Virus record (IMG/VR): IMGVR_UViG_3300033153_009450
Span: 1 to 61,278 of that record
Length of the DNA: 61,278 nt
Reading direction: 5' to 3' (one strand)
Source of the DNA: a virus
Taxonomy: Duplodnaviria; Caudoviricetes
Positions 19,827 through 54,966 of this stretch are shown here, piece by piece; the first letter of the stretch is position 1, and the number at the start of each line of letters is the position of its first letter. The position numbers and the translations under genes are program-made. The notes under the pieces were generated by a model that made no database searches, was not told the origin of the DNA, and saw only the letters and a program-made list of their open reading frames with translations.

Positions 19827-20921
19827 ATGCCCGTCTACCCAAAAAACGGCCTTTACTACTGTGTCTACTACCAGGGCAGCAAGCGCGTCTGGGAACCTTT
19901 CGGTCGCGGATCCGGCGCAAAAGAGGCCGCCGAGGCCAGAGACCTTGAAATAAAGCTCAAGAAAAAGACCGGTCAGATGCGACATGCCCCGGCCGGCCGA
20001 ACCTCTTTCATGGACCTGGCCCGCATGTATACCGATGCCCGAAAGAACGAACTGGCCGATAATACCATGGACGGGATCTTGAGAACCATCACCACCTATG
20101 CCGGACCAATCAGTAAAAAACCGATCAACCTGATCACAATGGACGACTGGCGCAAGATCGAGCAGAAAATGATCCGGAGGAAAATAAAGAACCGGACAAT
20201 CAATACCTACTTCGTATACCTTTCAAACATCCTGGACTGGGCCATGGGTGACGGCCTTATGGAAAATAACCCGTGGACCCGCCGGAAACGCCTCAAGGAG
20301 CGAAATAGATTTATGATAGACCTCTTCACCATCGACGAGTTTAATCGCATCCTGGCCGTATCTGCGCCTCATTTAGCATGGATTTTGGACACGGCCTATC
20401 ATACGGGTGTCCGGCCCGGGCCCACTGAACTATTTTGCATGAAATGGGAGGACGTGGATTGGCACCTAAAGCGAATCCGTATCTATTCGCAAAAGACCGA
20501 TACCTGGCGCTGGCAGTACCCGGACAAAAAATACTTCCGCCGCATGGTATCTAAACACAAACAAATGCAGAAAAAGTATCCCGGCTGCCCCTGGATTTGT
20601 TCGTACAACGGCAGGCAGATCACGAGTGTCAAAAGGGTATGGAAGGATGCTAAGGAAAAGGCAGGCATCAAGCGCCGGATCCGGCTCTACGATATTCGTC
20701 ACTTCTACATCACCTATGCCCTGGCGAACGGCGCAAACATAACCGAGTTAGCGGAAAGGGTAGGGCACGTGAACCCGCGCATGATTGTCAACGTCTATGC
20801 CCACCTTGCAAAGGACATCGCCCGCAACAAACCCTTCAAACTCCCCGAACTGAAAATCCCCGCCAAAACAGTAGATATAAACAGTAGACAAAGAAAGGCC
20901 GTCCCCGAAAAGACGGCCTAA
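19827..20921 (+). CDS. int: Tyrosine integrase
   Basis: HTGVRP, YDIRH, VGH...YAH catalytic pattern; adjacent attP. Confidence 0.93.
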   Translation: MPVYPKNGLYYCVYYQGSKRVWEPFGRGSGAKEAAEARDLEIKLKKKTGQMRHAPAGRTSFMDLARMYTDARKNELADNTMDGILRTITTYAGPISKKPINLITMDDWRKIEQKMIRRKIKNRTINTYFVYLSNILDWAMGDGLMENNPWTRRKRLKERNRFMIDLFTIDEFNRILAVSAPHLAWILDTAYHTGVRPGPTELFCMKWEDVDWHLKRIRIYSQKTDTWRWQYPDKKYFRRMVSKHKQMQKKYPGCPWICSYNGRQITSVKRVWKDAKEKAGIKRRIRLYDIRHFYITYALANGANITELAERVGHVNPRMIVNVYAHLAKDIARNKPFKLPELKIPAKTVDINSRQRKAVPEKTA

Positions 20922-21986: not shown

Positions 21987-22451
21987 TTAAAGTTTATAAA
22001 ACCAATGGCCTCCCCATTTAAAAACAGGGATTTTTTCCTCTGCCCAATAGGGTAGTTTAAACTCATGTATCCTACCGGTAGTGCTCACTTCTGTCTTAAC
22101 CTCCACATGATAATGGTTAGCTCCGTTTGTTATATCGCCAACCCAATCATAAAGAACAAGAAAGGCCGCCGACCAGCACTCCCGCCACCATGCCTCAGAC
22201 CAGAAATGTTTGAAGTACCGATAAAGGAAATATGGGGCTATCTCCATAGTCCTGTTGATAGAATTCAGACAAGAAAATTGTTTAGCCTGTAGAATGACAG
22301 CCTTGTAATCATTAGACCATCTACGAGAATCATTAACCCTGTTACGCACAGCGCAGGCCACGGCCAGCTTGCCTACGAAGTCTTCTCCGGCTGCTTCACC
22401 TATTATCATACCGGTGAATAGGTCTTGTACGTCAAGTTCAGATAGTTTCAT
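21987..22451 (-). CDS. SleB/Hydrolase_2 cell-wall hydrolase (endolysin)
   Basis: IIGEAAGE...AVA...NRV...QFSC...TNGANHYH...HWFY. Confidence 0.88.
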   Translation of the reverse strand: MKLSELDVQDLFTGMIIGEAAGEDFVGKLAVACAVRNRVNDSRRWSNDYKAVILQAKQFSCLNSINRTMEIAPYFLYRYFKHFWSEAWWRECWSAAFLVLYDWVGDITNGANHYHVEVKTEVSTTGRIHEFKLPYWAEEKIPVFKWGGHWFYKL

Positions 22452-26338: not shown

Positions 26339-29300
26339 TCATGCTGCCTCTTTTTTTCCTTCAGCCTTCAACCTTCTACCTTCTTTAACCATCATCCTCT
26401 TAATCTTTCCGCGTATCCGTTTACGGGCATTCCTGATGACGGCCCGGATCTTCCTGGCCTTCCATTCATCAGATCTCCGGGAATTAATAATCCCTGCGAG
26501 TTTTCTCCGGGCGATGGTGCTCGATTCCTCTAAATATTTATCATACTGCTCTCGGCTCATTTTCTGGTTGACACCGTTTATATTCAAATACCTGCTCGGC
26601 GGTCCCATATTCAGGGTTTCGTTTTTGAGCATCTCGTTTATAACGTCCATTACAGGGTCCGGCCCCTTTTCCGCCGCAATAATCGGGGTCTCAAGTCTTG
26701 GCCCCCATGCCGTATGAGTCGCAGCGCCCATGCTGTGCATGATTGCCGTCAACCCGTCTTCCTCGCCCTGCATATACCGGATAAAATGACCCACCTGGAT
26801 GGGCTGCATATTTACCACCTGGTTAACCACTACCGATGGCAGCCGGTTCAAACCGCCTACCTTTTCCTGAAAAGCGGATTTTTTAATGGTCTTCCCCGTG
26901 GTCACAAACTCCTTGATTCCCGTAAACGGCCTTTCCGCCCAGTCGGACCCGGAAAACGCGGCGGATGCGGCACGGACAAAAGGACTGCCCTTATGTTTCA
27001 CCAACCGGAAAGGATCAATCAGTTTGAGCGGGTCAAAGAAATGTCCGCCCAAAGAAAATGTCTTTCGCTGGCCTTCGGTATCAACGCCTAACATATGGTA
27101 CAGCTTTGTAACGTCGATCTCGGTCCACCTGAGTTTATTCGCCTTGTTTGAAAGGAGCTGCTCTTCCAGGAATTCCTCGGTCTCATCCGACCCATTGAGC
27201 AGGAGCTGGGCGACAATGGTGCTCACGGCAATCCTGAGCATCACACGGCCCCAGAATCGCCTGTATACATCCTCCATAGCCTTTGGACCGGGGACATCGC
27301 CTACGGTTTTGCTGATAAATTTATTTAGCCCGGGCACCATGCCTGATACGGTCCTGAAATTGGATTCAGTCCAATCCGGCGCAAGCAATAACATCCGGGC
27401 CATCTTCTGAAGCGTGGGATTCCTGCCCATTCGTTTCAGATGCAGCCCGCCAAAGTCCGCATTAATCAACCTGGCGACCCGCTCCGCGATCTGATTAGGG
27501 TTGGGTGGCAGCTTGGACCTGCCGGATGTATATTTCTCATTCTCCTTTTGAAGCTCATGGGTGTACTCGACAACAAACGCCTCGGCCTTGAGACCTGCAA
27601 AGTATTTCTTGAACAGGCTGTCCGTGAAACGCTCACGGTAAAAGCGGCCAGCCTCTATTACCTTGCCGGTCTTTTCTAATCCTAAGTAATTTACCAGTTT
27701 TTCAGTCAATCCCGTGGATGCCCTTAATTCACTCTCCGCCCAATCCTGAAGCTCGCCTACCGTAAGCCCGTTCTTGATCCCTAACTCGATTAGGGGATGC
27801 AGATCCTCGATCTTTTTCAAACCGGCCTTAAATGCCTTGACCGGATTTACGTTCTTCCACCCATGATGTACGCCGAATACCCATGACCGCGTACCTGCCA
27901 TATGATGAAAGAAACTGGACAGGAGTATCCAGGTCTTTATGCCCGTATTAAGCCGGAGAAGCTCCTTTGCTACCGGTGTTGTATTAAAGAGCGTATCCGT
28001 GGCCGTCATCTTATTAATCATCTCGGCGATGGGTTTAGGCGCATAAAGCGGTTGTTTTTCAAACATCTTGGACACGTCCTTGGGGGGCCTCCGCTCGATA
28101 CGATCATAATGTCTTTTGTCAGCAAATTCCTCGGCCTCTTCCATGGTATCAAACAGCTTTATGGCCTTTTTCGATTCTTCATTTTTGTAAACCGCAAATT
28201 GCTCCGGTATGCGCTCGGGTGTGGTAGCAAAGAACTTGCGGCCATATGTGTCCACAACAAGGGCCTCTTCATCTCTGAATTCGGATTCAATCTCGGCCTT
28301 ACCCGCCCATCTCCACACAGAGAAACCGGACGCCTTTAGCGGTGCATATCCGGGTTTGGGCTTTGCCGTAAACATGGCATTGCCGGATACATCGACCGTA
28401 GCAACTCCGCGCTGCAAGAAAGCCTTGTTTGACATGATAGTAGCAAGTTCGGTCATATATCGTTCGTAGCTGCTCGTAATCCCCTGGACACGAAGCTCGT
28501 AACCTGCCATCCAGCCGTCTAAGATAGTATCGAAAGTCCTTTGCTTGGCCGCAGTGGTGTAGACCTTGAACCCGTAACCGGGACCGGTACCCCTAAATTC
28601 TTCGGCTTTGCCTTCCGGTAGTTTCCACAAACGCCGTACATAATTGTCCCGGTGTGTCTTAATGATCTTGTGGGCATTGGCTAACGAGAACGCATCTTCA
28701 AACAGATCACCCATATGATCAACAAAGTCATTCTGCTCATCTGTCAGCTTAAACGCCTGGTCTAATATTTTTAACTGGCCCTTGATCTTTAACCGGTCCC
28801 TGGCCGGAATATCCCCGGCTAATTGTTCTTTGGCCCATGCCCTGAATTCATCCGCTTTTTCCAGGTTATCGCCCAGATCCCGGCGTATCGTCATTGCCTT
28901 GTCAAGTTGATCCGATGCAAAAGACCTCTTCAATTCCGGCTTATATGCAAACCCCAGGGTAAGTTTCTTCCTGCTTGCCGGACCCGCCAACCTTTTGACC
29001 TGATCCTGGAGATCCCAGACACTGTTCTGGATCCGGAAAACAGCAAGGTCTTTCATCTCAAATAGCTTGTTCACAAAAGAACGATCGTTCTCAATATCCT
29101 GCGCAACCTCGCGCCCGGTCGGCTGTTTCTGTACGGAATAGTACGCCTGCCCCTCAAAAAGCACCGACTGTTTCATCTCCGATGTAATGTCAACGGAATG
29201 GACGGTCTCAAGATCATCCTTAAAATCGGCCTCGCTCGCTCGTTCTAAATTTTTCGCCATATCCTTTCTAAGCCATTTAGGTCCTTCAGGCGTTCGATAA

Positions 29301-32300
29301 TAAGCCCAATCTCCTACTTCTAATCCAACAGCACCCGCAGCGGGTTCTTTTGTAACAATCTTTTGCTCTCCAACCTTACCACTCCACTGCTTTACATATT
29401 TCCGCATGAACCCGGGGAGCAACTCATCATAGAACGCCCTCATGCCTATACCGCCGATGGAAAGATCCTCACCCTTAAACGTGCCGTAAGGTTCCTTAGA
29501 GGTTATTATCTGTTGTGCAAGGGGTTTGCCGATAACGTCTTTAAGTTCTACTTCTTTTCCTTTTATGGCGGTTGTACCTTTGAGGGGAATATTGGCGCTA
29601 AAAACAGAATTGTTTTTTTTCTTTGCTGAAACCTCTACCTCGCCTGCCGCAGTATTCTTAAACCATCTAATCTCATCAACATTCTGCCTTAATGCATCTT
29701 CATACCGTGCGATCTGGTGTTTGCCCTTAGTCCAGGCTACGGTATCAAACCCATTTTCCGCTGCATACCTGAGCATCCGCTTCATACACACTTCATGCCA
29801 GTTTTCAAGAAAAGGAGCTGGGGGGACACCAACATCAGTAGCATACATTCTGTTATGTAACCCCCTTGCTTCTTCTTCCAACATCCTTAGCCTGTCAGCA
29901 TCTTTATCTTTTGTGGCACTGATTATATCTCTCTCTATTTGTTTTAATCTATCAATTGCGTCTGTTTTTTCTTTTGGTGTCAATGGTTTAAGCTGACCCT
30001 TAAACCCCTTCTCCTTAGCTTCCTGTAACCAATCCGACTGAATCTCTTCTATAAACAGAACCCGCTTACCTTCGGCATCGGTACGCTCGTTAAACCGGAC
30101 ATGAGCTAAGACATTAGGTTCATCCCAGTGGGTAGCGCGGTAAGTATCTGGTGAAATTATTTCATCTTTACTCTTTCTTCTGTGAAGTAAACTGGCGATA
30201 TGTTTTTCGTCAACATTTAGATCGTTGAACCTTTTCCCATATTGTTCTTGTGCTGCATCATCTAAGCTAAAATCTTGTTTGACGGATATTTCCGGCAACA
30301 TAAACAGCAATTCCCGGTATCCTTCGCCGCCGGGGAGGGTATATGTTTCAAATTTCGGGGAACCTGCGCCTTCTTTTAGCTGGTCAATATGTTGTTCATA
30401 AAGACCTTCAATATCAACACCTGTTAATTTCAATAACTCTTCACTTGCATTATCATTTCCTCCGCCGCTGTCCTCATATTCATTAAGCAATTCATCAACT
30501 CTGCGTTTCCAAAAAGCAGATACAGAGATACCAATATCTCTATCTGGATATTCTTCAACAATCATCTCTTCGTCAATCATACCTCCTGGCTCTGCTTCTC
30601 CTATGATTCCCCGGAATTCTTCAATAGCATCTGTCAACGCCGCGTCTTGAATGTCAGCGGTAATGTCTGTATGCCTTACACTCTTCTCAATTTCCCTAAT
30701 CTCAATCTGATTCGCCTTCAGAAAATCAAGAAAGGCATCCTTATCAATTTTGCCTTCCTTCTGATTCTCTTTAAGCCAATCCTCAACACCCATCCATTTC
30801 ATTTCTGCCGGTTTTACCTGTTTCCGTTGCAGCCATTTAGTTAATGACTGTACCTTGCGGGGCATATCCGTTGCCGTCTCAACGGCACGCATAAGCTGTG
30901 AATAAAAGGGAGGGGCGGTTGTCGCAAACATCTGGGCTTGCTCCGCAGCGCCCGGCCCGGTTTTGAGATCAAAGATTCTCCCCGTTTCAATATCCCGCGC
31001 AACTCCCCGCGCAGTCCGGTGAAACAGGTTCACAAAACGTTCAACCCAATCCCTGATCTTTTTCAAGATCCGGCCAACAGGGCCTTTAACATCCTTGTTT
31101 AACTGATCAGCGATATAGCTTGCCCTGTCCTCCGGTCCGCCTATGTCCTCCTTATTTCTTGTAGTAAACTTGCCGTTATTGACCAATTGCTTGATCCGGG
31201 TCTTCAACGCTGCAATATCCCTGTTTGTCAAAATACCGGCATCCTCAAAGAAATGAACCGACTCATGGCTCAGGGTCCATTTATTCCCAATATCCTCCTG
31301 AATCTCGATTACGCCGCTCTTATACTTTCCGGCAATAAACTCGCCGGTCTCCTTCTGACGACCATAGGTTAATTTAAAAGACGCGCTATCCTCGGAAATC
31401 TGTTGAACGGTCTTTATTGTAACGCCATGCCCGGCCTTTGTGCGCACCCATATATCACCATCCGGCGAGATCCCCACATGCTGACCCTTGAACACGGCCC
31501 GCACATCGTCGAGGGATATGGCATCCGTAACAAATCCCCTGGTTTTCTGCCGTTTCGCGGCTTCTGGCAAAACCCCGAACGATTCATGCAATTGCTTGAT
31601 ACGAGCAGGGAGATCTTTCAGGTCTTTGACGGTTACGGAAGAATTCGTTACATTATCCGTAAAGGCATACGGCCTTCCCGCAAGGCTCTCCCATCGCCCG
31701 TCATATGTGAGATTATGTTTTTTGGTAAGCGCTGCAATGGCAGGAGTAACGGAATACTGCTCCGGTTTCTCCATGTCCGCCTTAGCCTTGGCGGCGGATT
31801 CGCCCGTTACCCATGGAGATTCGCCATATTCCTCGACAGATTGTTCAGAAAGCCCTAAGACCTCTTCCTCACCATGGCCTTCTAATGCTTGCCTTGCATT
31901 ATCTATAGCCTCTTTTTTTGAAAGACCTTGCCTTACGATAATACCGCTTCGGGCATCTGAAACAATCCATGTTCCCATGTCTTTATCTTGATGGATAAAT
32001 GTCTCAAGCCAGGGTACAATTTCAACCCCTTTCGCATCAAGCAGTGCTTCAAACTCTTTATTATTATTTAATTTATAATACGCTCTGCCCGCCGCAGGCG
32101 CTATTTCCGGCGCAGCGCCCATCAAAGTTGCATTGATCTCTCTTGATTTTTTCCTTAATTCCTCTAACTTGTCTATGTCTTTGAAGGTTTCTTTGTTAAC
32201 GGATTCGCTCTCAAGGCTGGATACCTCGGTATTGAGTTTCTTGATCAGGTCTTCATATCTCTTCAACTCACCATCTAATCCGTCAATCTCCCTGTTCAAC

Positions 32301-35300
32301 TGGCTGATATAAGTGGATATGGCGCTTTCTTCGTTCGCATAAGAGCTGACAGGCTTTACAGGAATCATATTCCCGTGTTCACCAACAAATAATGTCTGTG
32401 TATTTTGATATATATTATCAAGATACAGCGTGAATCCCCGGTACCCGCCAACAGCTAATGTTCGCTCTCTGAATTTCTTCTTGCCCTCGATCTTAGCCAT
32501 CCCGTATAGCTCGGCAAGGGCCTGGCCTGCCTCTTTCTTGTCCGTGATGGTTTTTTCTTCAATGTCGTATTCAGGAATTCCGTGGATTATAAAGCTGAAT
32601 TCCTTGTCGTCAGGTTTTGGCTGCCTGGTCTCAATATCCTTCTTTATATCCTCTATCCTTCTTCCCACCGATGTTATTCGGGTCTTTCTCGATGCAATCC
32701 CGGATTGTAAATCGAACCTCTGATCCATCCATCCACGATGCATGGCCTCCATTTTTATCAGGTCGGCATCAACCCTGACCTTTTCCAGAATCAGCGGGTT
32801 GCTGGACGCAATAGCCTTTACAGTGGCATAATCCAGAACGGCCTTGCCGATATCCTCCATCTCATCGACACCGCCCTTCATGGCCTGCACAATGAATTTT
32901 GCCTTGTTCTCTAATATCTGCCAGCGATACGCATCGAACGTGCCCCGTGTGACGTACCGGATAATATGAACTTCATCGTTCAGATTGTCGGGCCTGATAG
33001 CCCTGCCGTCTCTCTGTTCCACATCGGAAGGACGCCATGGTGCATCAAGATGATGAATGGCAATCAGTTTTCTTTGCACATTCATACCTTCTCCCATCTT
33101 GCCGGTGCTTCCCATCAAGATTCGCACCTGCCCTCTATTCATTTTTAAAAATAGTGCCGCCTTTTTCGCATCCGTATTGGCATCATGGATAAAGACGATC
33201 TCCTTCTCCGGTATGCCTCTATCTATGAGTTTTTGCCTTACATCATGATACACGTTGAATTCGTCTTTTTTGGGAATCGAAAAATCGCAGAAAATAAGCT
33301 GGGTGAGCTTGTCTTCGGAAGTCTTTTTATAAATATCAACAGCCCGGTTGATCATTAGATTGACCTTACTGCCGGGATTATCAGGTAGGGTCGGCTCGAT
33401 AAGCCGCATATCAAGGGCCGCCTTTACCCCATCCGTTGTTACGACTAAGGCATTATCTTCTCTGGGGTCAACCTGTCCACTGCGTATCGCATCCATGCGC
33501 CCGTCTAATTCCTGGATATACTCTTTCTGTTCATCCGATGGTTCCGCCCGGTTGATATCAGGTTCCCCGCCGACCATCTTGGGGACTTTCAGAAAGGGAA
33601 TATCTTCAATATGCACAATATCCGCGAACTCCCGGAACAGGGTGGATAGCTGGCCCATATTAATGAAATTCCTGAATCTGGTATGCATCCTGAAACCTGA
33701 TCCGGTAGGCGTTACCTCCGGCTCTTCCGCAACATCCCCGAAAGTAGCGGCCCATGCATCGAAATTATGGATCTGCAGATCTTTCAATACATCCTGGGCC
33801 AGATACCTCTGTATGGTAAACATCTCGCCCATGGAGTTTGAAATAGGAGTGCCGGTTGCAAAGATAACACCCCTGCCATTATTAAGGCGCTGGACATACT
33901 GTGCCTTTAGAAATAAGTCCATGGTCTTGTCCGCGCCCTGCATCTGTACCCCGGCAACACGGGTCATGCGGGTTGCGGCCCACAGGTTCTTGAACTTGTG
34001 GGATTCATCCACAAACATATAGTCGATGCCTAATTCCTCGAATGTTACGGTCTTGTCCCTCTCACCTTTTTTAAGCACCGTAGCCAGGCGGACTTCCAGC
34101 CGTCTTTTTGACTTTTCAAGCTCCTTGACTGTCTTGGTCTTGCGCCTGCCGCGATCATAAGCCGGGAGACCAGCCTCTTCTTCTATAACAGCGGCCTCTA
34201 ATTCCTGGATCTGCGCCCGGATAAAATCGGCCTGGGCCTTCTTGCTCATGGGTAGCTTGATCATATTTGGGTGGGTGATTATGACTGCATCCCAGTCGCC
34301 CGTGGTTATCCGGGCCATAAACTCGGCCCTCTGGGCGGGTGTGAGGCTCTTTTCAGTAGGGGCAAGGAGCTTGGCGCCGGGATAAAAACGCATGAATTCG
34401 CTCTGCCACTGCATAATCAAATGCTTTGGCACGATAAACAGAGGCTTTTTCGATAATCCTAACCGCTTCAGCTCCATTGCCCCCGTGATCATAGAGAGCG
34501 TCTTACCCGATCCAACCACATGGCCTAACATGGTATTCCCGCCGTGTATAATCCGCCACACGGCATCTTTTTGATTAGGTCTCAGGCTGGCCCACGCAGC
34601 CATGCCTGGCAAACGATCAGGAAGATGGCCTCCGTCATATTTCCGGTTGCGCACACTGTTAAAATTACGGTTATAGATTTCAATCAGATTCCGTTGTCTT
34701 TCGATATCCTCAAAGATCCATTTCTCAAAATGTTCTTTTATCTCTTTCTGCTTGACCTGCGCATTCACGGTGGCGGTCTGATCAACATGGGATTTGCCCT
34801 CGCTGTCGGTATACGTAATAACCGTGGCCTTTAGATTGAGCGCATCCCCGATCAGGCGGATTGCATCCGCTCCGTGAACACCCCATCTTTGCTCTCTCAA
34901 CATATTGTCAGAGCCGGACCATCTATCAAATTCCGTTACCCATGTGGCCGTCTCCGGGATATATTTTACCTTGTGCCCCCGGGCGCTTATGAGTTCGCTC
35001 AGGTACTCTTCGATATAATTGTTAGGAATCCAGCCCATACCCAACCGTGCCTTAATCCTGGATGGCGGGATATCCTCGGGTTGGGCCTTTTCCAGCGCCT
35101 CTATGTTTTCCTTATATTTACTGTCTATCTCCGCTGCTGCCCTGGCCGCCTCTAACTTGGCCCTTACATTGCCGGAGAGATATTCGTCCGCAGTTACCCG
35201 CTTCTCGCCTTCGGGATCTAAATAAACCATCCCTTTGAGTTCTTTTTCCAGCGATTCAACGCTTTGCCCGGATATACGGGCCATATGCTCGAAATCCAGC

Positions 35301-38300
35301 CCACCTCGCTCAAACATCGAGACGACAAGGGCATCCTGGGCTGTTTCAACCTTCTCGACCGGTGTGAACCGGGCCATAGTCGGCTTTCTGAATATATCGG
35401 CCTTCTCGGCTGTTTTTTCTTCCGGGTCGTAAACTTCTAATGAAAGCAACAGGGGAAGATCAGGATCATCTTCTACTGACTTCATGTTATATACATTATG
35501 GATATATCCGTAATTTTTGACAAAACGGTCGTAAACCTGGTTGAGTTTTTTCAGGTCGGATTGTTCTAAGTCTGTTTTGCCTTCAAGCTGGTTGTGGAGT
35601 GTCTGGCGGGTAATGTCCCGCAACCGGACAAGCCCCTTTATACGACCCAATTCCTTCTTTGTGCCGGGGACCGGGATAGCGTCGTCACCCTTTTTCTGGT
35701 AGATCTCCCCGTCCTGCTCAAAATAGGCGAAATTTTTGACGGTATCCGGCGCTGGCATAAGGTCTTCTGTTTTCGGGGCCTCTGTAGCCTCATGCACGGG
35801 TTTTATATACATCTCCGCAGGTATGCCCGTATCAATCGCACCGGCAAGGGCCTCGCCTAAATCCCGTCCGTCAGACGCCAGAGCCGCCCGTCCCGGATGC
35901 AGCTTATCGTCAACAAGTTTTCCAAGCATCATGTGCGGATATTTGGCAAAATACTCATTAATAAGGTATTTCTTATATTCCTTTGTCTCTACCCATTTAG
36001 CCCCCCTGGGCTTCTTGCCTGCCTCTAACTTGCGCAAAAAGATGATATCCGCCGTAACCTCGGTATTTGCTATCTTCTTGAACGCATCGCCCGGTAAGCG
36101 GATCGCGGCGACCAGTTCCGCACGCTCGGAGATGTATTCCCGGATCCGGGAATCCTTTTTATTCATCATACCCGCAGAAGTAATAAAGGTAATCAGGCCG
36201 CCGGGCCGTACCTTATCAATGGATTTTGCAAAGAAATAATCATGAATGAAAAATTTCAGGTGGTTATAGTCGGGATCAAAGACCTTGTAATCCCCGAAAG
36301 GAACATTGGAAATGGCAAGATCAAAGAAATCATTTGGCAGTTTGGTGTCTTCATATCCCTGCACGCGGATATCCGCTTCCGGGTAAAGCAGCTTTGCGAT
36401 CCTGCCGGATATTGAATCAAGCTCGATGCCGACAATTTTAGAATTCCATTCTGCCGGTACAAGCCCTTCAAACATACCCGTACCGCCCATGGCTGGATCT
36501 AAAAGTCGTCCGCCGTCAAATCCCATGCGTTTTAAGGCATCGTATATATTTGAAACAATTAAGGGCGAGGTATAGTGTGCATTAGGTGTGCTGGCCCTTG
36601 CGGCCTCGTATTCCTCTTCGGTGAGTAGTTCTTCTAATTTTTCAGCACGCCCGGTCCATGGTGTATCTTTATAGGAATAGGTCTTAAACGCCTCGGGCAT
36701 ACCGCCCCAGCCCACATACTTGACCAGAACAGCCTGGTCTTCAGGTGTGGCCTGCCGTTTTTCTTCCTCAATTTTTTTTAGGAGTTTTATGGCAGCGATA
36801 TTGCGGTCGTATTTCGCGACCTTGCCGCCGGATTCGATATCGTCTCGGTCGGTTATTCGGTAGTTTCGCCCAGCTTCGGGACCTCTTCCTCGCTCGGCAG
36901 GAGGATGTGCTGGGGCAGTACGATCTCTTCGGCCTCGTAGATCTTCAGCCCCTTCAGCACGAGGTTGCGCACTTCCTCGCCCGCCCTCTCCCCGGACTCC
37001 TTCAGGAACTCGTTCAGCTCTCCCTTCTCCTGCAATTCCTGAAACATCGTCGGGCGGAATTCCTTCAAGTGGTCGTGTGCCCTCAGTGCGTACCCCCTCA
37101 ACTCTTTCAGGTTTGCGTCCACCTTCTTCACCCCCTATCTCTTCTCTGACGAATTTTTCAAAATAGGGCCTACCCCTAATTCCAAGATTGTCTACGGCAA
37201 TGGAAACAAATTCTTCAAGGCTTTTTCCCGCAGCAACGATCTCGTCCCATGCCTCTTTGAGTAAGACCCTGACCTGTTGCCATGTTGTATCGTTCTCATC
37301 TATTTCCTCAAACGATATTACGCCTTCATCACCTAATAACTTATTGATCTCTTTAAACTTGGAAACTGCGTTCGCAACATGCTCCCCGGCCTCTTTCAGT
37401 TTCTCCTTTGCCGGTGGTTTCGCACCCTGCCTGGCAGCCTGTTCCTTTTTCTTTTCTGCCAGCCTGCGATCATATGCTGCTAACAAATCTTCAGGGGTTG
37501 CTTTTAATTTAACCTCTTTTTTCTCCTTTGTCAAGGCCCCTGTTTCTTCCTTGTCCGCCGGAGCTTCTCTGTCCGCCTTAGCCTTGGCGGCGGCGGAAGC
37601 GGCGGCGGATTCAACAACTTCCGGCGCCTTACCTGTCTCGGCCTCCACTTCTTTGTCCGATGCCTGTATCTTAGCACCGCTGTCGGTCTTGACAAGATAA
37701 CCGACCATTCCACCGGCCTTTGTCCCGTAGATCGTTGTAAACTTAATAGAAATTACCTCGACAACCTCACCATGCTGCTTGGTCCCGGTCTTAAGTACAA
37801 CCCGATCACCCTTTGCGAACTTGCTTGGCTTTTCTACCTCTTCTTCTACCCCAGCTTCTTTGACTTCGCCTTTTTTTTCTTCCAGTACTCCACCTGGTTC
37901 AGCCGGTGATACGCCGTGCCCTTCGCCGGGTTCTTCCGGTCGCCTTTCTCCTGGTACGGGCCGCCCAGGTGCCTTCTCTTCCCGTCCGGGCCTTTCTTCT
38001 CGCTCAGGACGTGATACCCGTCCTTTCTCTTCACTAACATGTTCCTTCTCCTTAATGGTATATGGCAGGCTTTCTTTTTCAAGAATTTCTATAACCTTAT
38101 CGTAAGGGATACCAACGTCTTCCCCTTCTTCATTAAAGAATACATTCTCGCCGAAAACCTCAACAGCGGCATCCTGCTCATCGCCGGAAAAATCATCAGG
38201 CAGCCATGCCCTGCCATCATCCCGGATCTCAACATAACTCCTGCCGCCCCGGGCATTCTCGAAATCAATCCCTGCTACGTCTTTGGCAAGCAGTGTCTTA

Positions 38301-40834
38301 CCGGTCAATACAAGCGGCTTTTTACCCGCCGGTTCTGTGGCGGGCCGTCCCGTCATCGCCGCTACGGCTGGACTTGGCTTTTTTGGCTTTCGTAATGTAG
38401 TTACTACCAAATGAGTTTCTTGTTCTACCTTGCCTTCAATACCTGGGATTTCAATGGCTTCAATGTCATGTCCTTCTCTGAATTTCTCGACCTTAAAGCC
38501 TTCTTCCTCCGCAAATTGTTTTATTTCCCCGGGTGTCCAATAGCTGACCCATTTATCGCCTGTCTTGGTCCGGGTATAGAGAAACAATTTAGCCTGTCCG
38601 CCGGGCCTTAAGACTCGATTTATCTCTCTGAATGTAAACCTTATGGGTGTGGAATGAAGAGCTGCCACGGAATAAACAGCATCGAATGATTCGTCCTCAT
38701 ATTGAAGATTTTCCGCATCTCCTACTTCAAATGCAATATTCTTTACGCCCCTTGCGGCTTTCTTTGCCCTCTCAATAGCCTTGTCAACGACGTCGATCCC
38801 TGTAACATCGTGGCCTTTCTTTGCCATAAAAATACTATCACGACCATTGCCGGTGCCTATTTCTAATATATCGGCATTTTTTAAATCTTCACGGTCGAGG
38901 TCTTCAATTATTTCGTCGGCAAGAGGGGAATGCTCTTTTTCTTCGACATAATGAGGTTCTTCCACTTCCGCATATTCCTTTTGCCATTCATCGGAAGTCA
39001 TCTTTTTATTGTATGCTTCAATGCGCTTCTTCTCTTCACTGGATCTTTCAGAAAATGGAATCACCTCTTTTGCTTCCGGCGGAGGTTGAACCTTCTTACC
39101 CGTCATCGCCGCAATGCCCTGGCCTTTCTTCCCTTCTACCTTCAGCCTTTCACCTTCCACCTTCTTAGTGGTGGGAACCCCCTCCGTCATTGCAGTTCGG
39201 TCAGGCTGCTCGGGAGGGGGCTTTGGGGTTGGCTCTGGGATTTCTTGAATCTTTTTTTCTTCGGCTAATTCCTCAGCCGCTATCCTTTGCTCTTCTTCCT
39301 CATGGGCCAACTCGTCCGCCATAGCTTTACCCGCCGTCAGTGTGGTGGGTTCGGCGGCGGCGGATTCTTCGGCTGCAATGGCCTCCATGTCCGCCATAGC
39401 CTCGGCGGCGGCGGATTCTTCAACCCTAATTCTCTCAGCTTCAATCTTAGCGGCCTCTTCCTCGGCAATAATCTCACCCATTATGCCTTCAGCTTTGAGC
39501 CTCTTTTCCTCTTCAGCCTTCAGCCTTCTACCTTCTGCCTTCTCTTCTAATACCGATTCTTCACCGATATCCTTAATCATGCCCTGGTTATCGGAAATTC
39601 CACCCTCGTCTTCCTTCAGCCTTCTACCTTCTACCTTTTCTTTTTCTACCTTCTCCCTGAATTTCCTTGCTACCTCGACAAGATCCTCGCCCATCGCTAT
39701 GGATTCTTTTTTAATGACCGCGATGGTAGCGTTCATCTTCCATACACGGGCGATATCCGCGTCAACATCCTTTAAGGTTTTGTAGACCTCATTAACGGCA
39801 GATAGCCGGATCTTTTTATCTTCCTGCGTATCTGCTAATTTCTTCGCAATATCCCTGCGCTGCAAACTGGTTATGCTTGATCCAACCCCGAAGAAGATAA
39901 TACTTGCAACCGCAGTAGGGCCTAATGCGCTTTGCGCTGCTTCCCAGAATCTAACATCACCCATGCCGATATCATGGGCAAGCTCGGCCTGGACACCGGC
40001 GGTCGCTGTCTCGGTAGATACCTCGGCAAACATAATTCCACCGGCCTTTTTTAAATGCTGCCTGAATCCGGTACGAAATATTTGTTTGAGCCCGGCTTTT
40101 AAAGCGGATTTTGCAGGTGTTGTTAAAGGCTTTGCAATTCCAACGGTCAGACCTTCTAAGATATTCGAGACAAACTCAAAGCCGCCTTCCGCCATACCGG
40201 ACAGCATGGCATTGGTTTGTGCCTCACTTTTCGGGATACCTTTCTTTTCTGCCTCTTCAATAAAACTGTCATATTCCGCCAATCCGAACTGGACCCCGCC
40301 GCTTAATGCATAGCCGATCAATGCGCCTATTGCGGTACCCACACCCGGACCGAATAGTGTCCCGATTCCAGCGCCTGCTACGGCACCGGGAGCACCGGCT
40401 AAGAGTGATTGAACCGCTGCTTCAACACCTTCTGTAACCCACCGGCGCCATCCTTCTTTTGATTGCGGTGTTGGTTGGACAAATGGTGTCTCTTCTCTGA
40501 ATCTCTCAATGCTCTCTATGCCTGATGTTGCGGCTTCCTCTATCCAGTCTATCCCGCCTTCAGGGTCCAGAGTACGCAGCGCTCTTAATCCGGTTTCACC
40601 GGCTGAAAGTACGCCACGGGAGATCAAAGAACCTGCTTCCGCAAAAAAACCCCGCTCCGCAGGCGGGTCCCTTATCTCACTCGGTTCCTCTCCCAATAAC
40701 TCCGCAACAGTGAAATATTTTCGACCTGCCCGCCGGACGGCAGGCGGGTCTGAAACAGGAGGTCTTTTTACCGGAATAAACGGCGAGGGAGTTTCTTCTC
40801 CTAATAGTTCTCTGGCTGTATAGAATGAAGCCAT
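26339..40834 (-). CDS. Giant polyvalent/internal virion protein: class I SAM methyltransferase, DarB-like N6-MTase plus SNF2 helicase, HExxH and EEIQSD domains
   Basis: LEIGTGNG; LDPAMGGTG, NVPF, VGSGKT, DESH, ATGTP, QRDGR; HESVH; follows the ejection-protein genes. Confidence 0.9.
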   Translation of the reverse strand: MASFYTARELLGEETPSPFIPVKRPPVSDPPAVRRAGRKYFTVAELLGEEPSEIRDPPAERGFFAEAGSLISRGVLSAGETGLRALRTLDPEGGIDWIEEAATSGIESIERFREETPFVQPTPQSKEGWRRWVTEGVEAAVQSLLAGAPGAVAGAGIGTLFGPGVGTAIGALIGYALSGGVQFGLAEYDSFIEEAEKKGIPKSEAQTNAMLSGMAEGGFEFVSNILEGLTVGIAKPLTTPAKSALKAGLKQIFRTGFRQHLKKAGGIMFAEVSTETATAGVQAELAHDIGMGDVRFWEAAQSALGPTAVASIIFFGVGSSITSLQRRDIAKKLADTQEDKKIRLSAVNEVYKTLKDVDADIARVWKMNATIAVIKKESIAMGEDLVEVARKFREKVEKEKVEGRRLKEDEGGISDNQGMIKDIGEESVLEEKAEGRRLKAEEEKRLKAEGIMGEIIAEEEAAKIEAERIRVEESAAAEAMADMEAIAAEESAAAEPTTLTAGKAMADELAHEEEEQRIAAEELAEEKKIQEIPEPTPKPPPEQPDRTAMTEGVPTTKKVEGERLKVEGKKGQGIAAMTGKKVQPPPEAKEVIPFSERSSEEKKRIEAYNKKMTSDEWQKEYAEVEEPHYVEEKEHSPLADEIIEDLDREDLKNADILEIGTGNGRDSIFMAKKGHDVTGIDVVDKAIERAKKAARGVKNIAFEVGDAENLQYEDESFDAVYSVAALHSTPIRFTFREINRVLRPGGQAKLFLYTRTKTGDKWVSYWTPGEIKQFAEEEGFKVEKFREGHDIEAIEIPGIEGKVEQETHLVVTTLRKPKKPSPAVAAMTGRPATEPAGKKPLVLTGKTLLAKDVAGIDFENARGGRSYVEIRDDGRAWLPDDFSGDEQDAAVEVFGENVFFNEEGEDVGIPYDKVIEILEKESLPYTIKEKEHVSEEKGRVSRPEREERPGREEKAPGRPVPGERRPEEPGEGHGVSPAEPGGVLEEKKGEVKEAGVEEEVEKPSKFAKGDRVVLKTGTKQHGEVVEVISIKFTTIYGTKAGGMVGYLVKTDSGAKIQASDKEVEAETGKAPEVVESAAASAAAKAKADREAPADKEETGALTKEKKEVKLKATPEDLLAAYDRRLAEKKKEQAARQGAKPPAKEKLKEAGEHVANAVSKFKEINKLLGDEGVISFEEIDENDTTWQQVRVLLKEAWDEIVAAGKSLEEFVSIAVDNLGIRGRPYFEKFVREEIGGEEGGRKPERVEGVRTEGTRPLEGIPPDDVSGIAGEGRAERVPEGVRGEGGRGSAQPRAEGAEDLRGRRDRTAPAHPPAERGRGPEAGRNYRITDRDDIESGGKVAKYDRNIAAIKLLKKIEEEKRQATPEDQAVLVKYVGWGGMPEAFKTYSYKDTPWTGRAEKLEELLTEEEYEAARASTPNAHYTSPLIVSNIYDALKRMGFDGGRLLDPAMGGTGMFEGLVPAEWNSKIVGIELDSISGRIAKLLYPEADIRVQGYEDTKLPNDFFDLAISNVPFGDYKVFDPDYNHLKFFIHDYFFAKSIDKVRPGGLITFITSAGMMNKKDSRIREYISERAELVAAIRLPGDAFKKIANTEVTADIIFLRKLEAGKKPRGAKWVETKEYKKYLINEYFAKYPHMMLGKLVDDKLHPGRAALASDGRDLGEALAGAIDTGIPAEMYIKPVHEATEAPKTEDLMPAPDTVKNFAYFEQDGEIYQKKGDDAIPVPGTKKELGRIKGLVRLRDITRQTLHNQLEGKTDLEQSDLKKLNQVYDRFVKNYGYIHNVYNMKSVEDDPDLPLLLSLEVYDPEEKTAEKADIFRKPTMARFTPVEKVETAQDALVVSMFERGGLDFEHMARISGQSVESLEKELKGMVYLDPEGEKRVTADEYLSGNVRAKLEAARAAAEIDSKYKENIEALEKAQPEDIPPSRIKARLGMGWIPNNYIEEYLSELISARGHKVKYIPETATWVTEFDRWSGSDNMLREQRWGVHGADAIRLIGDALNLKATVITYTDSEGKSHVDQTATVNAQVKQKEIKEHFEKWIFEDIERQRNLIEIYNRNFNSVRNRKYDGGHLPDRLPGMAAWASLRPNQKDAVWRIIHGGNTMLGHVVGSGKTLSMITGAMELKRLGLSKKPLFIVPKHLIMQWQSEFMRFYPGAKLLAPTEKSLTPAQRAEFMARITTGDWDAVIITHPNMIKLPMSKKAQADFIRAQIQELEAAVIEEEAGLPAYDRGRRKTKTVKELEKSKRRLEVRLATVLKKGERDKTVTFEELGIDYMFVDESHKFKNLWAATRMTRVAGVQMQGADKTMDLFLKAQYVQRLNNGRGVIFATGTPISNSMGEMFTIQRYLAQDVLKDLQIHNFDAWAATFGDVAEEPEVTPTGSGFRMHTRFRNFINMGQLSTLFREFADIVHIEDIPFLKVPKMVGGEPDINRAEPSDEQKEYIQELDGRMDAIRSGQVDPREDNALVVTTDGVKAALDMRLIEPTLPDNPGSKVNLMINRAVDIYKKTSEDKLTQLIFCDFSIPKKDEFNVYHDVRQKLIDRGIPEKEIVFIHDANTDAKKAALFLKMNRGQVRILMGSTGKMGEGMNVQRKLIAIHHLDAPWRPSDVEQRDGRAIRPDNLNDEVHIIRYVTRGTFDAYRWQILENKAKFIVQAMKGGVDEMEDIGKAVLDYATVKAIASSNPLILEKVRVDADLIKMEAMHRGWMDQRFDLQSGIASRKTRITSVGRRIEDIKKDIETRQPKPDDKEFSFIIHGIPEYDIEEKTITDKKEAGQALAELYGMAKIEGKKKFRERTLAVGGYRGFTLYLDNIYQNTQTLFVGEHGNMIPVKPVSSYANEESAISTYISQLNREIDGLDGELKRYEDLIKKLNTEVSSLESESVNKETFKDIDKLEELRKKSREINATLMGAAPEIAPAAGRAYYKLNNNKEFEALLDAKGVEIVPWLETFIHQDKDMGTWIVSDARSGIIVRQGLSKKEAIDNARQALEGHGEEEVLGLSEQSVEEYGESPWVTGESAAKAKADMEKPEQYSVTPAIAALTKKHNLTYDGRWESLAGRPYAFTDNVTNSSVTVKDLKDLPARIKQLHESFGVLPEAAKRQKTRGFVTDAISLDDVRAVFKGQHVGISPDGDIWVRTKAGHGVTIKTVQQISEDSASFKLTYGRQKETGEFIAGKYKSGVIEIQEDIGNKWTLSHESVHFFEDAGILTNRDIAALKTRIKQLVNNGKFTTRNKEDIGGPEDRASYIADQLNKDVKGPVGRILKKIRDWVERFVNLFHRTARGVARDIETGRIFDLKTGPGAAEQAQMFATTAPPFYSQLMRAVETATDMPRKVQSLTKWLQRKQVKPAEMKWMGVEDWLKENQKEGKIDKDAFLDFLKANQIEIREIEKSVRHTDITADIQDAALTDAIEEFRGIIGEAEPGGMIDEEMIVEEYPDRDIGISVSAFWKRRVDELLNEYEDSGGGNDNASEELLKLTGVDIEGLYEQHIDQLKEGAGSPKFETYTLPGGEGYRELLFMLPEISVKQDFSLDDAAQEQYGKRFNDLNVDEKHIASLLHRRKSKDEIISPDTYRATHWDEPNVLAHVRFNERTDAEGKRVLFIEEIQSDWLQEAKEKGFKGQLKPLTPKEKTDAIDRLKQIERDIISATKDKDADRLRMLEEEARGLHNRMYATDVGVPPAPFLENWHEVCMKRMLRYAAENGFDTVAWTKGKHQIARYEDALRQNVDEIRWFKNTAAGEVEVSAKKKNNSVFSANIPLKGTTAIKGKEVELKDVIGKPLAQQIITSKEPYGTFKGEDLSIGGIGMRAFYDELLPGFMRKYVKQWSGKVGEQKIVTKEPAAGAVGLEVGDWAYYRTPEGPKWLRKDMAKNLERASEADFKDDLETVHSVDITSEMKQSVLFEGQAYYSVQKQPTGREVAQDIENDRSFVNKLFEMKDLAVFRIQNSVWDLQDQVKRLAGPASRKKLTLGFAYKPELKRSFASDQLDKAMTIRRDLGDNLEKADEFRAWAKEQLAGDIPARDRLKIKGQLKILDQAFKLTDEQNDFVDHMGDLFEDAFSLANAHKIIKTHRDNYVRRLWKLPEGKAEEFRGTGPGYGFKVYTTAAKQRTFDTILDGWMAGYELRVQGITSSYERYMTELATIMSNKAFLQRGVATVDVSGNAMFTAKPKPGYAPLKASGFSVWRWAGKAEIESEFRDEEALVVDTYGRKFFATTPERIPEQFAVYKNEESKKAIKLFDTMEEAEEFADKRHYDRIERRPPKDVSKMFEKQPLYAPKPIAEMINKMTATDTLFNTTPVAKELLRLNTGIKTWILLSSFFHHMAGTRSWVFGVHHGWKNVNPVKAFKAGLKKIEDLHPLIELGIKNGLTVGELQDWAESELRASTGLTEKLVNYLGLEKTGKVIEAGRFYRERFTDSLFKKYFAGLKAEAFVVEYTHELQKENEKYTSGRSKLPPNPNQIAERVARLINADFGGLHLKRMGRNPTLQKMARMLLLAPDWTESNFRTVSGMVPGLNKFISKTVGDVPGPKAMEDVYRRFWGRVMLRIAVSTIVAQLLLNGSDETEEFLEEQLLSNKANKLRWTEIDVTKLYHMLGVDTEGQRKTFSLGGHFFDPLKLIDPFRLVKHKGSPFVRAASAAFSGSDWAERPFTGIKEFVTTGKTIKKSAFQEKVGGLNRLPSVVVNQVVNMQPIQVGHFIRYMQGEEDGLTAIMHSMGAATHTAWGPRLETPIIAAEKGPDPVMDVINEMLKNETLNMGPPSRYLNINGVNQKMSREQYDKYLEESSTIARRKLAGIINSRRSDEWKARKIRAVIRNARKRIRGKIKRMMVKEGRRLKAEGKKEAA
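36853..37131 (-). CDS. TnpV-like small protein nested in the +1 frame of the giant ORF
   Basis: YALRAHDHLKEFRPTMFQELQEKGELNEFL...YEAEEIVL; the giant frame here is low-complexity. Confidence 0.65.
   Translation of the reverse strand: MKKVDANLKELRGYALRAHDHLKEFRPTMFQELQEKGELNEFLKESGERAGEEVRNLVLKGLKIYEAEEIVLPQHILLPSEEEVPKLGETTE
37846..38040 (-). CDS. Small basic phage protein nested in the +1 frame of the giant ORF
   Basis: AAGGAGAAGGAAC-ATG; MLVKRKDGYHVLSEK...HLGGPY...AYHRLNQVEYWK. Confidence 0.65.
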   Translation of the reverse strand: MLVKRKDGYHVLSEKKGPDGKRRHLGGPYQEKGDRKNPAKGTAYHRLNQVEYWKKKKAKSKKLG

Positions 40835-53997: not shown

Positions 53998-54966
53998 TTA
54001 CGCGCTTGCAATCCTCACAATCCGCGCTTCCATGTCGGTGGCCGTAGGGAACTTTGTGCCGAATGCCACAAGGCCATACCAGGCCACAGCGCCACGACGC
54101 CCGAAATCGCCTAAGTAATTGGGTTGCGCCCGCAGATGCGGATATTCCACCTCGATGCGTGCCACGGCATCCTCACCGAAAATAACTCCCTCGCCCAACA
54201 CATTGCCGCTTCCGACTGAATTGGACAGGGCGCTCTCGTTTTCGACCTCGATGCACCGCACGTTCTCCACCTGGCCGATCTCGCCGCGATAGATATGGTC
54301 CCCCTTCTGGAGATACAGGTTCCACGCCTCGATCACCTTATCGTCCCGCAGGCCGCGAAGTCCCTTTGTAGAAATCAGGCCGATATAGTGCTCTCCGTCA
54401 CCCCAGAAAGGCACATGCAGATCCTTAACCATATAGTCGCGGATAGCGGAAAGATGGTCCTTGGTCAGGTTTACCAATGCGGTAGTGGAGGGCGTACCGT
54501 CCGTATCCCATGTCCCGCCCGTAAGGCTGGTCGGGATAAAGATCACCTTGACATCGGTGCCGGTAAACTCCGCAGCCGCCGCATTGTCCATAGCCTTATT
54601 CATTTGAAGGGTGAGGGCCTTCTGTGCTCCCTCTTTGGGGTTAAACTTGGAAAGCTGCATTGCAAGATTGGTATATTCAACGCCGCGCCCCCATTCCTTA
54701 ATGGTAATGGTTTGCTTTCCCATTGTGAGCTGATCAATCGGGATGCGGATATCCTCGGTCAACTGGGCGTTTGTCGGATCGCTCAGGGCCTTGTAATACA
54801 GCAGCGTGATTGATTCGCCCTTGCCTTTGCCGAAGGAGTCTTCCTTATTCGTAAACGGAACGAATTTGAATTTCCTTGCGGCTAACGTCAAAAGCTTACC
54901 GGACAGCGTATGATTCTTATACACTCCGGTCGCTGCATCATATGTCCATGTAAACGTTGCACCCAT
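53998..54966 (-). CDS. Major capsid protein (N4-gp56-like, HK97 fold)
   Basis: GKGKGESI, EWG, GEIG..ENVR, DFGR...AWY; follows the scaffold gene. Confidence 0.88.
   Translation of the reverse strand: MGATFTWTYDAATGVYKNHTLSGKLLTLAARKFKFVPFTNKEDSFGKGKGESITLLYYKALSDPTNAQLTEDIRIPIDQLTMGKQTITIKEWGRGVEYTNLAMQLSKFNPKEGAQKALTLQMNKAMDNAAAAEFTGTDVKVIFIPTSLTGGTWDTDGTPSTTALVNLTKDHLSAIRDYMVKDLHVPFWGDGEHYIGLISTKGLRGLRDDKVIEAWNLYLQKGDHIYRGEIGQVENVRCIEVENESALSNSVGSGNVLGEGVIFGEDAVARIEVEYPHLRAQPNYLGDFGRRGAVAWYGLVAFGTKFPTATDMEARIVRIASA

Follow-up and report, generated by a model that had tools for sequence, protein, structure and literature searches.

Can one stretch of DNA encode a linker of a giant phage protein and, in another reading frame, a complete second protein? 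This question is raised by the virus record IMGVR_UViG_3300033153_009450 (Duplodnaviria; Caudoviricetes), a complete virus record of 61,278 bp with direct terminal repeats, which was analyzed over its full length (hereafter, the window). The element under study is an open reading frame (ORF) of 64 codons plus a TAG stop, located at 37846-38040 on the minus strand in the +1 frame of a giant polyvalent-protein gene (26339-40834, minus strand; 4,831 codons). As judged from sequence comparison, this ORF is probably a functional gene that is translated separately, embedded out of frame in a disordered linker of the giant gene.

According to the proposed mechanism, the late mRNA of the giant gene would be read from two starts. 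Ribosomes starting at 40834 would make the polyvalent protein, in which residues 932-996 would serve as a structureless charged spacer, and ribosomes starting at an internal Shine-Dalgarno sequence and ATG would make a separate basic protein of 7 kDa. The linker would accept any sequence imposed by the small gene unless a T-ending nested codon precedes AA-, AG- or GA-. The overlap would be cheap because the linker needs little beyond staying open and hydrophilic.

The Nested ORF and Its Signals

The initial annotation, made from the sequence alone, had described a basic ORF of 64 residues at 37846-38040 with a ribosome-binding site of its own and an ATG at 38040, in the same +1 frame as a TnpV-like ORF (36853-37131, minus strand). 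This description was correct in all details. The ATG occupies 38040-38038 and the TAG 37848-37846 on the minus strand, and the translation is MLVKRKDGYHVLSEKKGPDGKRRHLGGPYQEKGDRKNPAKGTAYHRLNQVEYWKKKKAKSKKLG. The ORF lies entirely within 26339-40834, that is, fully inside a larger ORF of the same strand and in another frame. A Shine-Dalgarno sequence, AAGGAG (38048-38053, minus strand), is located 7 nt upstream of the ATG, with a second motif, AAGGAA, between the two. The encoded protein is basic (isoelectric point (pI) 10.3), and the loop that links PY to the helix is enlarged by an 8-residue insertion.

The dual-coding stretch (37846-38041, minus strand) corresponds to giant residues 932-996, an E/G/R/P-rich linker that is read one base ahead of the nested frame as HVSEEKGRVSRPEREERPGREEKAPGRPVPGERRPEEPGEGHGVSPAEPGGVLEEKKGEVKEAGV. 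It is flanked by small domains, of which one ends with ...LPYTIKEKE and the next begins with ...KFAKGDRVV. Disorder-promoting residues make up 85% of the giant frame over the overlap versus 60% in the rest of the protein, which bears out the earlier remark that the giant frame is of low complexity here. Giant codons beginning with T account for 3% in the overlap versus 11% in the flanks and 13% gene-wide, and the T content of the overlap (10%) is the lowest of the giant gene. Other open +1 runs of 93, 80, 73 and 72 codons occur in the same gene. The openness of the nested ORF is not special by itself; it is partly due to the fact that this stretch is the most T-poor of the giant gene.

A sigma-70-like match, TTGAAA-16-TACCAT (9/12; 38055-38082, minus strand), ends 15 nt before the nested ATG. 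The region contains three such sites against 1.0 ± 1.0 in shuffled sequences, which is not meaningfully above expectation, and an internal promoter was not accepted. The match is a weak lead only.

The Small-Protein Family

A phmmer search with the nested ORF against 1.84 billion representative proteins returned 12 matches at an expectation value (E) ≤ 1e-3, the best having E = 4.8e-8. Nine of them are proteins of 48-88 residues with 53-65% identity, in which the family domain aligns from about the first residue of the ORF; the six shortest themselves begin at that residue. The remaining three are repeat proteins and were regarded as spurious. A profile search then yielded at least 2,796 family proteins at E ≤ 1e-3, nearly all of them 48-51 residues long. 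Thus, the homology search that the initial annotation had called for, run with phmmer and profiles, found stand-alone homologues, and the small stand-alone proteins with a Y.V.S.K-type motif that it had described do exist. None of the 2,796 proteins carries a name or a Pfam domain, and their sources give "hypothetical protein".

A profile of 101 members built without the window protein matched the nested run with 68.8 bits (E = 2.5e-20), and no other of the window's 1,350 six-frame open runs matched it at E ≤ 10. As a control, 110 other alternative-frame open runs (at least 60 codons, nine giants) were compared with Pfam, and none matched at E ≤ 1e-3. The nested protein keeps all 12 invariant columns of alignment A1, its M1 is aligned to the M1 of the stand-alone proteins, and the similarity to this family of basic proteins of about 50 residues extends over its whole length. 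The family consensus is MIVKRxxGYxVxSESKGKDGKRKNLGGPYKTRxxAxKRLxQVEYFKH. Modeling of the nested protein using AlphaFold2 with 102 sequences gave a predicted local distance difference test (pLDDT) value of 84.1, with strands at residues 2-5, 8-16 and 22-29, a helix at 40-62 and the insertion in a loop. The model agrees with a fold of three strands and a C-terminal helix, and there is no solved relative with which to compare it. As judged from these searches, the family is large and old, with members that are basic proteins of about 50 residues and usually stand alone.

Searches for a curated family entry for the small protein found none in Pfam at E ≤ 10, and the best PHROG match had E = 0.16. 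The profile search of PDB sequences gave no matches at E ≤ 10. No Foldseek match had E ≤ 0.001; the best E value was 4.3 in PDB and 0.43 in BFVD, the latter for a DUF5824-annotated protein with a template modeling (TM) score of 0.62. The ESM Atlas search returned unnamed clusters only (0.87). Weak matches to the SPOR domain (PF05036) in 20 of the 102 members (best E = 0.0017, none for the window protein) and Pfam matches to DUF6316 in 12 of the 102, also weak, were not accepted.

Among cultured phages, tblastn with the window protein gave no match. With a stand-alone family member as the query, a single match was found among 50,697 cultured-phage records, namely Aeromonas phage 1233. Its stand-alone copy (locus L137, 5980-6132, plus strand; OR359403.1 around 54733-54852) is a possible experimental handle. 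The record OR359403.1 carries 28 features in 67 kb, and the small gene is not annotated among them. The earlier expectation that standard annotation would miss such genes is supported by this stand-alone copy, and the same bias is reported for embedded spanin genes in the part of PMC6139136 drawn on here.

Stand-alone copies were also found in 53 loci of assembled genomes labeled as candidate-phyla bacteria/Patescibacteria, Micrarchaeota, Bathyarchaeota, Methanoperedens and Gammaproteobacteria. These cellular copies (L075-L127) are nearly identical, for example MIVKR.DGYYVLSEKT.KNLGGPYKTREEA.KRLRQVE(Y/F)FKH, and some are located on contigs of 200-730 kb amid cellular genes. In four Bathyarchaeota loci, DJ-1/PfpI and/or AHSA1 genes precede the small gene, and in two cellular loci the small gene adjoins DUF3175.

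Recurrence of the Nested Arrangement

Using the family profile, 68 viral loci were gathered, and a scan with the N-terminal domain of the giant gave six loci. In nine of the 68 (L003, L005, L006, L017, L058, L059, L061, L064 and L066), the small ORF is nested out of frame in a giant open frame on the same strand, whose length ranges from 1,487 to more than 3,869 codons. Note that L064 and L066 are the same in sequence and were counted once. In 11 of the 68 loci, the domain is in frame within an open run of 240-1,186 codons, and in the remainder it stands alone. The scan with the N-terminal domain gave three nested loci (L128, L130 and L129, the last on the same contig as L061) and a stand-alone copy upstream of the giant in L131, which is on the same contig as L057; the remaining two loci show no copy. 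Nesting was thus seen at 10 viral loci besides the window, with 10 distinct nested genes among them, and the small ORF is in the +1 frame in every case.

The giants of the nested loci contain the Pfam domains InPase (in three), ART-PolyVal, LPD38, RadC, SNF2 and Strawberry-notch helicase. BLAST similarity among them is restricted to blocks, so that they are patchily related mosaics. The phages with the nested arrangement have genomes of about 56-63 kb. In the window genome and in all five other genomes that are 98-100% complete (56-63 kb), the family is present in one copy, and this copy is nested.

A tree of 66 small proteins, based on 45 columns, was mostly unresolved. The nested label required 8 changes on this tree versus a mean of 9.6 after shuffling, and 33 of 500 shuffles were as low. 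The starred branches force at least two changes of the nested state, which tells against a single origin of nesting; the tree is too short for counting events. The same +1 embedding, by these comparisons, recurs in unrelated mosaic polyvalent genes of other phages.

Start Signals and Signs of Selection on Both Frames

The 10 nested genes start with ATG in nine cases and with GTG in one. Their starts coincide with those of the stand-alone proteins, with residue 1 aligned in 9 of 10. A Shine-Dalgarno motif, defined as at least 5 nt between positions -16 and -5, was found in 8 of the 10 genes versus 2-7% of the ATGs within the same giants. The start methionine is absent from copies fused in frame inside a larger protein. 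The initial annotation had named a lack of stand-alone homologues, together with a start or ribosome-binding site not conserved in relatives, as the outcome that would speak against a gene; homologues were found, and an own start is conserved in 10/10 and the Shine-Dalgarno motif in 8/10 nested genes.

Pairwise nucleotide differences at codon positions 1, 2 and 3 amounted to 0.415, 0.327 and 0.519 in the nested genes and to 0.333, 0.279 and 0.637 in the stand-alone genes. The least variable site is nested position 2, which is the third position of the giant; therefore, the sequence is dictated by the small protein and not by the giant. In all 45 pairs, the nested frame exceeded the giant frame in amino-acid identity (mean 0.56 versus 0.38).

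A stop in the giant frame needs a T-ending nested codon before AA-, AG- or GA-, and 210 of the 525 nested codon junctions qualify. T-ending nested codons number only 13 of 525 (2.5%), all of them at harmless junctions, whereas T ends 15-34% of the same giants' own codons. It is this near-absence of T-ending nested codons that prevents stops in the giant frame. In 39 of 41 stand-alone viral genes, the proportion of T-ending codons among the first 42 is 0.10-0.36; the other two genes have a guanine-cytosine (GC) content of 0.64 and 0.73, and the GC content of the phages with nested genes reaches down to 0.50. Among stand-alone copies, the corresponding +1-overlaid frame lacks stops in only 4 of the 41 viral ones and 1 of the 53 cellular ones. 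Judged from the codon-position, identity and T-depletion statistics, both frames appear to be maintained by selection.

Alternative Explanations

Several observations weigh against a functional, separately translated gene. The nested genes of L059 and L064 are not preceded by a Shine-Dalgarno motif. Only the window's copy has the 8-residue insertion, which could mean relaxed constraint. The absence of stops in the giant frame was itself the criterion for recognizing nested cases, so that only the depletion of T at junctions incapable of a stop (13/315) is independent evidence. Since there are close pairs among the 10 nested genes (L061/L128, L059/L064 and L006/L017), the independent cases are fewer than 10. 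The related giants of L132 and L133, from records that are 67-76% complete, show no copy. In addition, the proposed function is not backed by a family or fold match in Pfam, in PDB sequences or in Foldseek searches of PDB and BFVD. Finally, the copies in candidate-phyla bacteria and archaea sit in ordinary non-viral neighborhoods, which argues against a purely capsid-specific role.

The missing motifs of L059 and L064 and the unique insertion would suit a relic, namely a small gene that was swallowed by the giant ORF or shifted out of it and is now untranslated and decaying, with only the giant frame functional. A relic is nevertheless improbable. None of the 10 nested ORFs is disrupted, and each has its start and its stop at the family positions in spite of a mean identity of 56%; the nested frame is the more conserved one throughout the 45 pairs, with the least variation at the giant's third position; and the sole copy of the family is nested in 6 of 6 complete genomes.

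It is just as improbable that the domain is made only as a frameshift product joined to the giant, either through a +1 shift (the N-terminal 930 residues plus the domain) or through a -1 slip from the nested frame (the domain plus the rest of the giant). Joined forms of the domain are known from the 88 longer proteins that contain it in frame, 23 of them at the C-terminus, and from L028, which encodes a 576-residue protein ending in the domain. The window also has the sequence A AAA AAG at 37870-37876 (minus strand; nested codons 55-57), and a -1 slip at this site would lead into the giant frame. However, in-register slippery heptamers are present in only 3 of the 10 nested genes and at differing positions, and a programmed frameshift site with a conserved in-register heptamer and a stimulator was not found. 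The nested frame is closed just 5-34 codons upstream of the ATG, where no common motif occurs, and no stable RNA fold was detected near the nested start (z = -1.19). Moreover, a conserved ATG or GTG with a Shine-Dalgarno motif is a requirement of separate initiation, and in-frame internal copies are without the methionine.

A still less probable possibility is that the giant ORF is not one gene and that its frame is merely open over the small gene, with two proteins made from separate starts on either side. The low complexity and poor conservation of the giant frame over the overlap (mean identity 0.38) would agree with this. Against it, every nested locus found has an uninterrupted frame of 1,487 to 4,831 codons, and its upstream part is not closed by a stop. 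The depletion of T-ending nested codons extends to junctions at which a stop could not arise (13/315), and unadapted copies are stop-free in the giant-equivalent frame in only 5 of 94 cases.

A chance ORF with an accidental AGGAG in a T-poor, purine-rich stretch, for which the T content of 10%, the lowest of the giant gene, and the comparable +1 open runs elsewhere might speak, is ruled out for practical purposes by homology to the 2,796-member family (phmmer, and E = 2.5e-20 to a profile built without the nested ORF), by the 0/110 Pfam matches of control alternative-frame runs and by the recurrence of the arrangement in 10 other loci.

Separate translation of the nested gene remains the preferred reading. 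A wider proposal, to which we give slightly less than an even chance, is that the locus represents a dual-coding module conserved among uncultured tailed phages. An ancient gene for a small basic protein that folds independently would lie, always in the +1 frame, in disordered linkers of virion-delivered polyvalent proteins, and this arrangement would have at least two independent origins. In a reversal of classical overprinting, the small gene would be the older one and the giant frame the one superimposed on it. The product of the small gene would be made from the giant's mRNA and act with the giant, for instance by attaching to the DNA, packaged or ejected, that is protected by the polyvalent enzymes. 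If this is true, the linkers of giant proteins would be a general hiding place for genes missed by annotation.

In-Frame Copies, Gene Neighborhoods and Possible Function

Altogether, 88 longer proteins contain the domain in the frame of the host, with E values of 1e-14 to 1e-24 against the profile; the domain is located at the N-terminus in 23 of them, at the C-terminus in 23 and internally in 42. The Pfam partners of these copies include Portal_Mu, Phage_portal_3, Phage_Mu_F (3), Peptidase_S49 (2) and DUF2213; further partners are ChaB (2), DUF5661 (3), 2'-5' RNA ligase/Acb1-like domains and DNA ligase. In particular, the small domain is in frame at the N-terminus of a head-maturation protease in L026 (5849-6721), at the end of a portal/minor-head-protein ORF in L011 (15-2030) and at the N-terminus of an ATP-dependent DNA ligase in L008 (10001-12031). 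In L027 (532-1320), it is fused in frame to a downstream sequence that closely resembles the L026 protease, an assignment made by resemblance.

The pI values of the family range from 10.2 to 11.3. Among the 48 non-nested viral loci examined, the large terminase gene neighbors the small gene in 12, DNA-metabolism genes are the neighbors in five, and some others have portal, head-maturation protease, tail or internal-virion proteins as neighbors or fusion partners. These data tentatively suggest that the small protein binds nucleic acid or resides in the capsid interior and is produced along with the polyvalent protein. All the hints would fit a general module for nucleic-acid binding that is positioned by phages beside packaged DNA, an idea that we hold with equal reserve.

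The Window Genome and the Giant Host Gene

The giant gene (26339-40834, minus strand) is the largest gene of the phage and is located at the end of the structural block. Its protein contains a class-I methyltransferase at residues 640-750 and a SNF2/ResIII/Helicase_C helicase module at residues 2083-2614, and its N-terminal and C-terminal domains are common to other giants. Several unrelated enzymatic or effector domains are therefore combined in one phage polypeptide, as in polyvalent proteins, and the giant protein is probably delivered with the virion. The phage genes that back this assignment were identified by PHROG matches: large terminase (59418-60893), portal-like protein (56740-58692), major head protein (53998-54966), endolysin (21987-22451) and integrase (19827-20921). 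A primase gene (3152-4945) was identified in the same way.

The window giant is a mosaic, with residues 3896-4813 and 102-388 related to other giants. Identity amounts to 65% between its C-terminal 900 residues and the C-terminal part of the L017 giant, to 33-36% between its methylase-helicase core and L006 and to 40% between its N-domain and L061. The motif EG(R/E)RLK occurs four times, at residues 402, 434, 560 and 4818 (39614-39631, 39518-39535, 39140-39157 and 26366-26383, minus strand), each time after K and V, A or E. It was not found in eight other giants and could be a processing or binding site.

The TnpV-Like ORF and the History of the Overlap

The initial annotation had counted two independent nested genes in the giant ORF. 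The ORF at 37846-38040 is genuine, and the TnpV-like ORF is weakly supported. The latter (36853-37131, minus strand; 92 codons, +1 frame) is located just before the DNA-methylase region. Its match to TnpV (PF14198) reaches 23.2 bits versus a cut-off of 27 (E = 7e-5) and covers profile positions 21-72 of 111. A word-indexed protein search gave no homologues, and no counterpart was seen in the 68 viral loci. Note that among about 112 alternative-frame runs tested, this ORF is the only one that matches any Pfam family.

The growth of polyvalent proteins by reading through intact small genes, which had been proposed from the two ORFs, is possible. No precursor with an unfused gene A, the small gene and gene B in the same order was found. 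Among relatives whose copy stands alone, the nearest is L057, whose giant shares the N-domain with the window and whose small protein groups with the nested ones of L061 and L128. In L057, the small gene (10001-10135) stands alone about 1 kb upstream of the giant, away from the nested position. In L061 (8385-8522) and L128, it is nested at giant residue 491, and the giants of L057 and L061 share the N-terminal domain. Insertion of a cassette into the linker, or a shift of an in-frame domain (of which there are 88 in-frame forms), would fit equally well as a history.

Comparison with Known Systems

Overprinted gene pairs of small viruses, such as D/E of phiX174, are usually explained by the de novo birth of a second frame under genome-size pressure. 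As in D/E, two proteins are encoded by one DNA stretch in different frames, one of which is more constrained. In contrast to D/E, the embedded gene predates the overlap here, and the phage has a double-stranded DNA genome of 61 kb. Few embedded genes are known in double-stranded DNA phages, spanins being an example, and they are usually viewed as oddities of small lysis genes.

The in-frame copies in portal, Mu-F, prohead protease and ligase proteins contain the same domain as the nested gene. They use the host's frame and mostly have no start methionine, whereas the nested copies use the +1 frame and have their own start (ATG or GTG), Shine-Dalgarno motif and stop.

With the polyvalent proteins of Iyer et al. 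2017 (PMC5512222; comparisons refer to its main text, supplements aside), the window host and its counterparts share a multidomain mosaic build. InPase, ART-PolyVal and LPD38 are Pfam domains defined in that work; the host counterparts carry them, or a methyltransferase with a SNF2 helicase, as in the window. An out-of-frame embedded gene is not described in this main text, where the words "frameshift", "overlap" and "TnpV" do not occur and "nested" is used only for a hairpin fold. A full-text literature search combining "polyvalent protein" and "overlapping gene" returned nothing relevant.

The closest known case, according to the part of PMC6139136 on which this comparison is based, is Rz/Rz1 of phage lambda. 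In embedded spanins of this type, a small gene lies wholly in a larger phage gene of the same strand, in the +1 frame and with its own start; separated forms of spanin genes also occur, and gene callers miss the embedded ones. The nested gene shares with Rz/Rz1 the +1 embedding, the own start, the separated forms of the family and the omission by gene callers, and in both systems the overlaid frame is rich in disorder-promoting residues. The two systems differ in that both Rz and Rz1 products are subunits of one complex and form a small pair, while the host here is a multi-enzyme protein of 4,831 residues. Unlike in Rz/Rz1, the embedded gene is the old, widely distributed and folded partner, and the host linker is the unconstrained frame. 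In addition, that part of PMC6139136 contains no spanin family that mixes embedded with other architectures, whereas the small family occurs in stand-alone, in-frame-fused and embedded forms.

An old and widespread family thus lies within the linker of a phage's largest gene, as seen on ten or more distinct phage contigs, and its sequence signature is clean. Owing to this signature, such genes can be sought systematically through an alternative-frame profile match combined with the near-absence of T-ending codons. Because standard gene callers forbid such overlaps, the sole copy of the family is invisible to annotation in six complete genomes. The case also flags a family with thousands of small members in phages, archaea and candidate-phyla bacteria that has neither a name nor a fold match. 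With the embedded gene as the older partner, the arrangement bears on the origin of overlapping genes and on why the younger frame tends to disorder. Relative to Rz/Rz1, the new features are the giant multi-enzyme host, the old folded embedded partner and the presence of three architectures in one family.

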